Shown piece after piece: positions 6,433 through 25,164 of a DNA stretch of 41,806 bases. Each line of letters begins with the position of its first letter. Within the stretch, counting starts at the first letter, position 1. Both the position numbers and the translations under genes were made by a program. Source of the stretch: a virus (lineage: Duplodnaviria; Heunggongvirae; Uroviricota; Caudoviricetes); the IMG/VR virus record IMGVR_UViG_2711768061_000003, positions 1-41,806 of that record; one strand, given 5' to 3'. The notes under the pieces are model-generated. The model had not been told where the DNA came from, did no database searches, and was given only the letters and a program-made list of their open reading frames with translations.

Positions 6433-6500
6433 GTCGTTAATTCCTATGCGTGGTTTTACGATATCGAAGCCCTGACTGTTCCCGCAGTTGGGGCTTCAAC
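6420..6500 (+). ncRNA. putative sar-like antisense RNA covering the ant ribosome-binding site (approximate bounds)
   Basis: Inference from P22 immI biology; strong hairpin at ~6465-6497 in the arc-ant intergenic region on the strand opposite to ant. No promoter verified. Confidence 0.3.
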
Positions 6501-6501
6501 T

Positions 6502-22127: not shown

Positions 22128-22370
22128 TCATGCTCCGGTGGTGAACAGGTCTAACGCTTCCTTCGATTTACGCACCGCTTCGATAGTGCGGGTCGTGATA
22201 TCTGAATTAGCGCCGCCTGACTGGAAGTGAATTTTGAATAGCTCAAGCTTCAACTCGTCAGTGCCAATGAATTGAAATGCTTCCTCCGCGGCTGCGTTCT
22301 GGTTCATGACCAGCTTGTAAATCTCTAACTGGAATTTCTGTTCTTCAGTCATGGGAATAATCTCTGCCAT
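22128..22370 (-). CDS. hypothetical protein (P22 orf80-like position upstream of terminase)
   Basis: 80-aa ORF in the slot between the Rha-like gene and terminase small subunit. Confidence 0.5.
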   Translation of the reverse strand: MAEIIPMTEEQKFQLEIYKLVMNQNAAAEEAFQFIGTDELKLELFKIHFQSGGANSDITTRTIEAVRKSKEALDLFTTGA

Positions 22371-22722
22371 TGTTGGCTCCGTTTATCCGTTAAAAGGGAT
22401 ATCAATTAAGTTATCCCGTGTAGGGTATAAGCCATTGTCGAGACCACTCATTGAATGGCCTCTGCAATAACCGATGTCTTTCCATCAGTCCGCCACCACA
22501 AAGAATCTTTTTTGCCTTAAGGCTGGAGGTTCATCTTTCAGTGGCTGCCAGTGTTATTTCCCCACTTTCTGGCTTGGGTTGTTTCGCTGTACTGCCGCAA
22601 CTGGTGGTGCACAGATTTAGTTAAATCTGTTCTCGCCTGAACTATCTTTTACATACCCGGATTGTGGGGATGTAAATCACGGTTTCATTATCAAGCCCAC
22701 CCGTAGATGAGCTTTGGAATGG

Positions 22723-23241: not shown

Positions 23242-23391
23242 AGCGTCTTTACCTTTTAGAAAGTGAGCCTGTCTCACAGAAAAGCCGCCCCGAGATGGTC
23301 GCCACCATATACGGCAGTTCTCAGGCTCAACTTTCTGAAAGGCTCGGGTGATGTAATATGCGCGTGAGATGCGCTGTGAAATTCAGATGTA

Positions 23392-23418
23392 AAAAAAGCC
23401 CCGCATCGCGAGGCTCAT
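23392..23418 (-). terminator. putative rho-independent terminator downstream of Rz
   Basis: Minus-strand GC-rich imperfect hairpin (GCCTCGC...GCGGGGC) followed by a U7 run. Confidence 0.4.
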
Positions 23419-23446
23419 TAAATTGACTTTGTGATTTGCAAAAAAA

Positions 23447-24664: not shown

Positions 24665-25164
24665 GTCTTACCCCCAATAAGGGGATTTGCTCTATTTAAT
24701 TAGGAATAAGGTCGATTACTGATAGAACAAATCCAGGCTACTGTGTTTAGTAATCAGATTTGTTCGTGACCGATATGCACGGGCAAAACGGCAGGAGGTT
24801 GTTAGCGCGACCTCCTGTCACCCGCTTTCACGAAGACCATGTGTAGAAGGCCGCAGCGTAACTATCACTGATGAATTCAGGATAGCCAGTGGCTACGGCT
24901 CAGTTTGGATTGTGGCGACCGGTGCTGATCTCCGGTTTGCTGCAACTGCCTACAGCGGGCTACGTGGCCACACCGAATCCAGCGAAAGATTCTTGCCCTT
25001 ACACATCAGCCTGTGCATTCACCACAACGATAAGAGCACTGCGCGGCACCTTTCACCAATTCCGCGAGGTCTGCGGGTTCAATGCTCTTACCTGTTGTGC
25101 AAACAAAAAAAAGCCACCGTTGCAACTTAAGAGTCACTAACGGCAGCTTACCTTCTAATTATGG

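Follow-up and report, generated by a model that had tools for sequence, protein, structure and literature searches.

A conserved, structured non-coding segment between rha and the packaging genes of a P22-like phage as a candidate RNA-processing region and cassette junction

What occupies the approximately 350 bp that lie without a gene in front of the packaging genes of an otherwise tightly packed phage late operon? The question is raised by a DNA stretch of 41,806 nucleotides, referred to here as the window, which corresponds to a P22-like (Lederbergvirus) genome with its late operon on the minus strand (Table 1). A sequence-only reading of the window had reported a gap of this size between rha and orf80, had described its contents as weak inverted repeats only, and had proposed that it might be a deletion scar, a regulatory region for the terminase operon, or a small RNA locus. 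The gap is real: it measures 352 bp and is devoid of conserved ORFs on both strands. On the sense-strand numbering used below, q1 corresponds to 22722 and q352 to 22371. Based on the comparisons described in this work, we infer that the gap is, on balance, probably an RNA processing or stability region with a role in translation control that doubles as a cassette junction.

Table 1. Coordinates of the late-operon genes and of the features of the gap; all are on the minus strand of the window, and q numbers run along the sense strand of the gap
Feature	Position	Strand	Basis or sequence
Holin	24664-24341	-	Gene order of late operon
Lysozyme	24357-23881	-	Gene order of late operon
Rz	23884-23447	-	Gene order of late operon
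rha	23277-22723	-	PHROG match; stop TGA 22725-22723
Gap, 352 bp	22722-22371	-	No conserved ORF on either strand
Block A	q1-50	-	Module mapping, 120 contigs
Hairpin h1	22685..22720	-	AUUCCAAAGCUCAUCUACGGGUGGGCUUGAUAAUGA; covariance model R1, 57.8 bits, E 7e-13
Block B, optional	q51-107/117	-	Module mapping, 120 contigs
Block B spacer, optional	22616..22672	-	Two small hairpins
Block B hairpin 1	22676-22648	-	UUUACAU...AUGUAAA, inverted repeat
Block B hairpin 2	22630-22611	-	ACAGAUUUA-AC-UAAAUCUGU, inverted repeat
Block C	q117/126-250	-	Module mapping, 120 contigs
Core (block C)	22473..22606	-	Near-invariant, ~135 nt; P22G homologue
RF03044-like segment of core	22543..22606	-	Common strings AAGCCAGAAAGUG and AAAUAACACUGGCAGCC
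Core long hairpin	22545-22492	-	Predicted within block C
Core small hairpin	22489-22470	-	Predicted within block C
Cassette insertion point, empty here	22471..22473	-	Between q250 and q252
Block D	q252-352	-	Module mapping, 120 contigs
Hairpin h2	22432..22468	-	AUUGCAGAGGCCAUUCAAUGAGUGGUCUCGACAAUGG; covariance model R1, 21.2 bits, E 0.005
Nested palindromes, block D	22383..22430	-	Inverted repeat, 19-nt arms
Block D element	22430-22423	-	UUAUACCC
Block D element	22417-22411	-	GGGAUAA
Block D element	22403-22396	-	GAUAUCCC
Block D element	22389-22383	-	CGGAUAA
orf80 Shine-Dalgarno GGAG	22380-22377	-	Read from sequence
orf80 start codon	22370-22368	-	Read from sequence
orf80/DUF2560	22370-22128	-	PHROG match
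TerS	22098-21604	-	Gene order of late operon
TerL	21626-20130	-	Gene order of late operon

The coding potential of the gap was assessed on both strands. Stop codons fill all three sense frames, and the single sense ORF of at least 25 aa is a 29-aa ORF with a TTG start that overlaps the end of rha. The plus-strand ORFs of the gap (39, 57/48, and 29 aa) are not conserved, and relatives carry 1-nt and 2-nt indels inside them, among which is a 2-nt insertion in P22. Based on the stop codons and these frame-breaking indels, hidden ORFs on either strand were rejected, and the protein-coding test identified no open frame that is kept among the relatives of the gap. A small protein gene, corresponding either to a 24-aa sense ORF that spans h2 or to the 48/57-aa antisense ORF, could be proposed because these ORFs exist in the sequence, a GG-rich stretch lies ahead of the 24-aa ORF, and the annotators of P22 placed a doubtful orf25 nearby. 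However, the 24-aa ORF is interrupted by a premature stop in P22, as read from the alignment, and has lost its start in Stx2 phage 1717 and Ayreon, whereas the antisense ORF is broken by the above indels; a hidden gene is thus considered extremely improbable.

Searches for other types of genetic elements were equally negative. ARAGORN predicted 0 tRNA or tmRNA genes in the window, in which there was also no Rfam tRNA match, and no copy of the gap was found elsewhere in the window. Neither promoter-like nor terminator-like sites were detected on either strand of positions 22371 to 22722, including sigma-70-like promoters, and the gap therefore contains neither the promoter nor the terminator that an independent sRNA gene would be expected to possess. 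In an Rfam scan of the gap, the whole window, and seven relatives, nothing reached the threshold except for the sar RNA located elsewhere in the window. Two further candidates were set aside: a pac or cos site, because packaging modules unrelated to one another follow the same block (the P22-type module and the HNH/terminase regions of HK97 and Stx2 phages), and the STnc6030 locus of BTP1, because STnc6030 is antisense to the tailspike gene and is thus located elsewhere. Searches of the literature on rha and IHF, on conserved stem-loops in lambdoid mosaics, and on Proteo-phage-1 returned nothing relevant.

An equivalent gap, likewise unannotated, is present in JEP4 (352 bp), HK620 (353 bp), and E. 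coli prophages. It is approximately 95% conserved among phages that differ in the upstream gene, which can be rha type 1, rha type 2 (78% identical), or hkbL; in HK620, for example, hkbK and hkbL (KilA-N type) take the place of rha, and the homology to many phages begins precisely at the end of the upstream gene. Parts of the gap were identified in 205 phage records, and the matched spans were q126-311 for P22, q126-352 for HK97 and HK022, q1-171 for ES18, and q255-341 for Stx2 phages. Parts of it were also found in 2089 of the 5426 complete E. coli genomes, nearly always without annotation; about 38% of these genomes thus carry part of the segment, as do hundreds of lambdoid phages. Mapping of the 120 viral contigs that carry the core revealed sharp and recurrent module boundaries, which define the blocks A to D of Table 1, with further joints near q300-311, q341, q361, and q434. 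Block B was kept in JEP4 and HK620 and is cleanly missing in many relatives, in which q50 is joined to q108 or q118. In the 57 distinct sequences that contain both the gap and orf80, the core had a nucleotide diversity (pi) of 0.025 and the 3' block one of 0.021, compared with 0.040, 0.0145, and 0.111 at codon positions 1, 2, and 3 of orf80. The diversity of the gap is thus 4-5 times below that of the third codon positions of orf80; the segment q147-180 was fixed by the search pattern, and the low pi holds outside that stretch too, but the low diversity of the core could in part reflect recent horizontal spread and mosaic recombination instead of selection.

The gap is also structured. The sense strand folds with a predicted energy of -108.3 kcal/mol, as compared with -86.5 +/- 5.4 kcal/mol for shuffled sequences (z = -4.04; 0 of 100 shuffles were as good), and the antisense strand has a z of -2.0. 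Polymorphic sites were depleted in predicted pairs (16/92 vs 34/100, Fisher p = 0.013), and 7 of 2897 pair cells were non-canonical, a comparison of paired and unpaired sites that provides modest support because the structure was predicted from the same alignment. The statement that the gap contains weak inverted repeats only can consequently not be maintained, given this sense fold and two hairpins, h1 and h2, that belong to a family supported by covariation.

The members of this family share the motif AUUACA-AAG-(variable stem)-CUU-GA-UAAUG, that is to say, a conserved base, AUU(A/G)CA...GA(U/C)AAU, a 2x2 internal loop, and a variable upper stem. Blocks A and D both start with one copy; h1 begins 2 nt past the TGA stop codon of rha, whereas h2 comes after the non-coding core. 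The upper stems are wholly different between lineages and always paired, examples being GCCCAUC/GGUGGGC, GCGUCUC/GGGGCGC, GGGCGGU/ACUGCCC, GGCCACC/GGUGGCC, and GGCUGUC/GGCAGCC. Among 36 distinct sequences, 98.5% of the hairpin cells were paired and all 6 variable pairs changed on both sides, with 26 double-change cells as opposed to 4.5 in shuffles, a value that none of the 500 shuffles attained, and pairing collapsed to 29-52% in slid controls. There were 49 G-U cells and 0 A-C cells, and it is therefore the sense strand that folds, and neither its complement nor a symmetric DNA cruciform. All observed variation in h2 preserves pairing (G-U to A-U, C-G to U-G, and U-G to U-A), including the change of the outer pair AUUA/UAAU to AUUG/CAAU. 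The hairpin flanks were fixed by the search pattern, and their invariance is thus not independent evidence.

With these data in hand, the relatives can be said to possess the same gap but not a featureless spacer, since what they share is conserved and structured. The refuting condition of the sequence-only reading, namely the same gap in relatives as a featureless spacer, thus holds for one half only. The view that the gap has no function and is a spacer or a remnant of recombination, with a deletion scar seeming conserved as a result of recent module spread, agrees with the observations that all homologues are at least 87% identical, that deeply diverged versions were not found, that the region is highly mosaic, and that block B is dispensable. 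It is nevertheless already disfavoured and appears very unlikely, because pi is several-fold below that of the adjacent third codon positions in the same sequences, substitutions avoid or preserve the predicted pairs, the hairpin family covaries across Enterobacterales, and the homologous segment of P22 yields a stable RNA, as described below.

Model R1, a covariance model derived from the 36 hairpin sequences above, produced exactly two significant matches in the 41.8-kb window, each of which lies on the sense strand of the gap. In 920 kb of related contigs it produced 85 matches, with one or a pair of them at each locus. All of the mapped matches in these contigs fall into the lysis-to-packaging region and the hairpin is always on the coding strand of the late operon, with Rz, rha, kilA, or hkbL before it and orf80, an HNH gene, or terminase genes after it. 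A spacing of exactly 2 nt separates the stop codon of a substantial ORF from the hairpin in 72 instances, which comprise many unrelated upstream sequences. When one genome per prokaryotic species was scanned, strong-stem matches, which add new stems, proved to be almost entirely confined to Enterobacterales (Escherichia, Enterobacter, Leclercia, Siccibacter, Buttiauxella, Pectobacterium, Morganella, and several Xenorhabdus). Three exceptions, in metagenome bins labelled Achromobacter, Nanosynbacter, and Bacillota, may be due to incorrect binning. As an internal control, the approximately 84 cases in which the flanks were matched by chance in unrelated phyla were all stemless, whereas the matches in Enterobacterales always possessed a stem. 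The same base with new stems was also found between the major tail protein gene (phrog_853) and the tail gene that follows it, 2-5 nt past the stop codon of the former; these copies are located on contigs of a different siphophage group (L211, L212, L225, L234, L259, L272, L281, L286, and L289). Because it occurs behind many different genes, including tail genes, the hairpin is to be seen as a general "gene-end" element of late transcripts that is not specific to the gap.

Rfam contains no match for this family, and both the hairpin family and the cassette architecture described below appear to be undescribed in Rfam and in the searched literature. Intra-operon terminators have been noted in phage L (PMC8022706), and like these and the terminators that flank phage morons, the gene-end hairpin is a GC-rich hairpin located directly after a gene in the late operon. 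Unlike them, it lacks a U-tract, either after the upper stem (CUUGAUAAUG) or after the whole hairpin, where the tails are CUUGAUAAUGA and GGCUUAUACC, and the terminator scan remained silent. Two side observations concern individual members of the family. Some variants, among them those at L223:1549, L251:12268, L213:549, and L234:7866, contain a perfect Chi site (GCTGGTGG) on the sense strand in the loop and 3' arm, as in GCTCACCTGCTGGTGGGC (16 copies); both copies of the window are without Chi. Chi sites have been reported to cluster in the same region, at the right end of some lambdoid genomes (2025, PMC12315714). In addition, the 3' end of hkbL-like genes contains a variable number of GCAAAA repeats, about 2 to over 9, directly ahead of the stop codon and the hairpin (e.g., contigs L215, L308, L315, and L330, which have an hkbL-type upstream gene).

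Between the two hairpins lies the core, which is near-invariant across 107 distinct sequences, the predicted loops included; since it hardly varies, covariation is uninformative here. Its link to a transcript comes from a small-RNA-seq study of P22-infected Salmonella that reported ten RNAs (Naaz et al., Noncoding RNA 2026;12(4):21, PMC13397905). One of these, P22G, is a sense-strand RNA of 204 nt located "downstream of ORF201" and present at 374-488 reads per million in cells and vesicles, to which that paper assigns no function and for which it gives no functional data (PMC13397905). Nucleotides 60-204 of P22G match positions 22597-22455 (minus strand) of the window with 139/145 identities (96%, E 1e-63), and the P22G locus, as that of the core, is downstream of rha, upstream of orf80, and sense to the late operon. 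The window has no counterpart of nucleotides 1-59 of P22G, which derive from the 3' end of the rha allele of P22 itself, and the reported 3' end of P22G is within the 5' arm of the h2 homologue; P22G is defined by the small-RNA-seq coverage of a single paper on P22, and its ends are approximate. P22 further differs in that it lacks h1 and block B and has approximately 600 bp of extra DNA ahead of orf80. Among the other P22 RNAs of that study, sar alone has a homologue in the window. The suggestion of a small RNA locus thus receives genuine support from the homology to P22G, but the absence of promoter-like and terminator-like sites in the gap makes it more likely that the RNA is a processed piece of late mRNA than the product of an independent gene.

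An sRNA could also be generated in this way, in which case the core would be a trans-acting P22G homologue cut from the late transcript, with the hairpins merely setting its ends, and would base-pair with host or phage mRNAs or act after vesicle export, as the P22 paper suggests. The abundance of P22G in cells and vesicles, the near-invariance of the core down to its predicted loops, the maintenance of its identity beside many different neighbouring genes, and a weak resemblance to a family classed as sRNA by Rfam are all in agreement with this possibility. There is, however, no known target, no promoter-like site or intrinsic terminator in the gap, and no Hfq-type 3' end (a hairpin followed by a U-tail) visible in the sequence. 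A trans-acting role is therefore rather unlikely.

The family in question is Proteo-phage-1 (RF03044), an element of proteobacterial phages situated within or heading the late operon. It was the best Rfam match in the gap, with a cmscan score of 18.7 bits (E 0.54) as compared to a gathering score of 42 and to the 70-84 bits of true members. The threshold was also not reached in P22, HK97, HK620, JEP4, Gally, Stx2-1717, and Ayreon. A sequence profile built from 43 true members had its best match in the entire window at the core segment, with an E value of only 0.059, and on the sense strand both share AAGCC(A/G)G..AGUG and AAC.C(U/C)GGCAGCC. The P1 and P2 helices of the family were not recovered, as the cmscan alignment contains non-canonical pairs in P1 and a deleted P2, and around the conserved loop of the core only a 4-bp CCCA/UGGG helix is predicted. 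The genomic context differs as well: true members follow NinG and the gene in the Q position, are preceded by a terminator, and come before the holin gene, whereas the element of the window comes after the lysis genes and rha. The replacement of GCCGG/CCGGC in RF03044 by GCCAG/CUGGC in the window was considered as pseudoknot or hairpin covariation that would prove kinship, but this was rejected because 54 loci have an uncompensated GCCAG...CCGGC. The core is accordingly not classified as a member of Proteo-phage-1, and a distant relationship is possible. It was also noticed that variants with the core strings only (AAGCCGG..AGTG...AAC.CCGGCAGCC) occur 0.1-0.9 kb upstream of terminase genes on unrelated phage contigs; those on L017, L029, L041, and L042 are below the Rfam gathering score. 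The Proteo-phage-1 family may be broader than its current model.

Block D connects h2 to orf80. Its nested palindromes are predicted to be able to form mutually exclusive RNA hairpins, of which the GGGAUA/UAUCCC hairpin is present in the consensus fold, and block D accompanies h2 even where the downstream gene is a different one, as in Stx2 phage 1717 and Ayreon. The positions q347-386 show zero diversity. With regard to orf80 itself, its first ~34 nt (22337-22370) are invariant (pi = 0) and the remainder is the most variable part of the region; recombination joints are located at q361 and q434; and HK97 (L004 1501-1809) has kept only the first 82 nt of orf80, ahead of the HNH gene gp74. The gap is a plausible candidate for a regulatory region of the terminase operon, as had been proposed, since its structured elements extend to 5 nt before the Shine-Dalgarno sequence of orf80.

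These palindromes could alternatively act at the DNA level, as operators for a dimeric protein, an internal promoter for the packaging genes, or both. Block D contains four TTATCCC-like half-sites in two inverted pairs with centres approximately 30 bp apart, which fit a dimeric-protein operator as well as they fit RNA, and additional promoters have been mapped inside the capsid gene cluster of the P22-like prophage BTP1 (PMC7067206), which lends some plausibility to an internal promoter. Yet no sigma-70-like promoter was found on either strand of the gap, and block D exists with and without rha, so Rha is not a dedicated partner; an operator for Rha was set aside for the same reason. The P22 change of CCC/GGG to CCA/UGG keeps complementarity, as symmetric operators would too, and operators would leave h1, h2, and the core unexplained. 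A primary function as DNA sites is considered quite improbable.

Returning to the preferred reading, the conserved, non-coding gap would be transcribed as part of the late polycistronic mRNA, with the lysis genes and rha on one side and the packaging genes on the other, and would act mainly as folded RNA. Two gene-end hairpins bracket a structured core of ~135 nt that accumulates in P22 as a stable RNA, P22G. The hairpins may be processing structures or structures that protect 3' ends, and the late transcript would thus be cut into segments of unequal stability, which could uncouple the expression of the upstream gene from the low level of expression that orf80 and the terminase genes require. 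The core would be left over as a stable by-product or as an effector. The nested palindromes (22430-22383) may tune the translation of orf80, and the conserved hairpin bases could at the same time provide short DNA homology joints for the swapping of accessory cassettes; this phage has the empty version of the site.

There are precedents for hairpins of this type in phage transcripts. Intercistronic hairpins are processed by RNase III in the early mRNA of T7, and hairpins at 3' ends act as stabilisers or retroregulators in the case of lambda sib and REP elements. As in these systems, a hairpin with an internal loop is located between genes of a long phage transcript; the gene-end hairpin is strand-specific, and the end of the stable P22 RNA maps at its homologue. 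It differs from them in its shorter stem (4 + 9-10 bp) and is unrelated in sequence, and the comparison is thus an analogy of mechanism only. A length of at most about 13-17 bp with a 2x2 loop is compatible with the geometry of RNase III substrates, although it is short for a classical site, and no cleavage site is known. If hairpins and core were to control the processing of late transcripts, they would represent a missing piece in the setting of unequal expression along a single operon. The comparisons also provide P22G with an evolutionary context and with boundaries that can be tested.

The second part of the preferred reading, the cassette junction, is based on insertions in relatives. 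Between the core and h2, at the exact point that is empty in the window, relatives carry inserts of 130-1316 bp with ORFs of 23, 61, 72, and 118-126 aa (Gp49-family), plus one pair of 59 + 246 aa. In most insert classes the stop codon of the last ORF is followed, 2-5 nt on, by a third sequence type of the same hairpin; the L117 insert contains no hairpin matching the search pattern. Hybrid hairpins occur at the joints, those in Stx2-1717 and Ayreon resembling an h1/h2 deletion, and that of L188 joining a type-3 5' arm to a type-2 3' arm. The idea of a deletion scar finds weak support in this empty site, which is filled in relatives, but the modules are conserved and not decayed. In phage Huey, an anti-CRISPR protein is annotated somewhere within the stretch that is homologous to this part of the window. 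The site beside the core may thus offer a handle for finding small accessory genes, such as those for anti-CRISPR proteins, in prophages.

The gene cassettes of integrons carry attC sites at their 3' end, and the gene-end hairpin resembles these in its position behind cassettes, in being an imperfect palindrome with a conserved base and a variable centre, and in the folding of one strand. The hairpins could accordingly be structure-defined recombination sites that fold on one DNA strand and mediate the capture and exchange of accessory cassettes, the rest of the gap being a landing pad. Cassettes with unrelated genes at one precise point, hairpin-ended in most classes, and the hybrid hairpins at the joints (h1/h2 in Stx2-1717 and type-3/type-2 in L188) would be explained in this manner. 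On the other hand, no integron integrase or other dedicated recombinase is associated with the element; homologous recombination at the 9-10-nt conserved flanks and the shared stem explains the joints; the element is also present after essential genes such as those of the major tail proteins, where cassettes were not seen; and its tight spacing to stop codons and its position inside a transcribed phage operon fit an RNA role. We regard a recombination site of this kind as distinctly unlikely.

A broader proposal combines several of these elements, namely, that the hairpin is an undescribed dual-role punctuation element of the late operons of Enterobacterales temperate phages, an analogue of attC, and the core a diverged relative of Proteo-phage-1. 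At the RNA level, the hairpin would define where transcripts end, immediately past stop codons; in the form of single-stranded DNA or of a short block of homology, it would serve as a joint that captures accessory and anti-defence cassettes at the lysis-packaging junction, and the invariant core (P22G) would have a conserved function in the late operon. This proposal is speculative and, as a whole, unlikely.

Several further features of the window were recorded. The non-coding stretch between Rz and rha (23278-23446, 169 bp) contains a canonical terminator-like hairpin followed by a T-run at 23416-23396 on the minus strand (GAGCCTCGCGATGCGGGGCTT TTTTT), and in Ayreon a related terminator is located immediately ahead of the gene-end hairpin. 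Approximately 500 bp on the minus strand (24665-25164), between a 172-aa ORF and the holin gene, lack coding-strand ORFs of at least 70 aa and presumably correspond to the late promoter and leader; no nucleotide similarity to the late-leader RNA of P22, P22E, was found. The 172-aa ORF (25683-25165) is in the gene 23/Q position and its identity is putative. Finally, the antisense RNA sar was identified at 6434-6501 on the plus strand (Rfam RF00262, 81.8 bits, E 9e-16), and its 97% identity to P22 sar over 67 nt indicates that this phage possesses a P22-type immI region.
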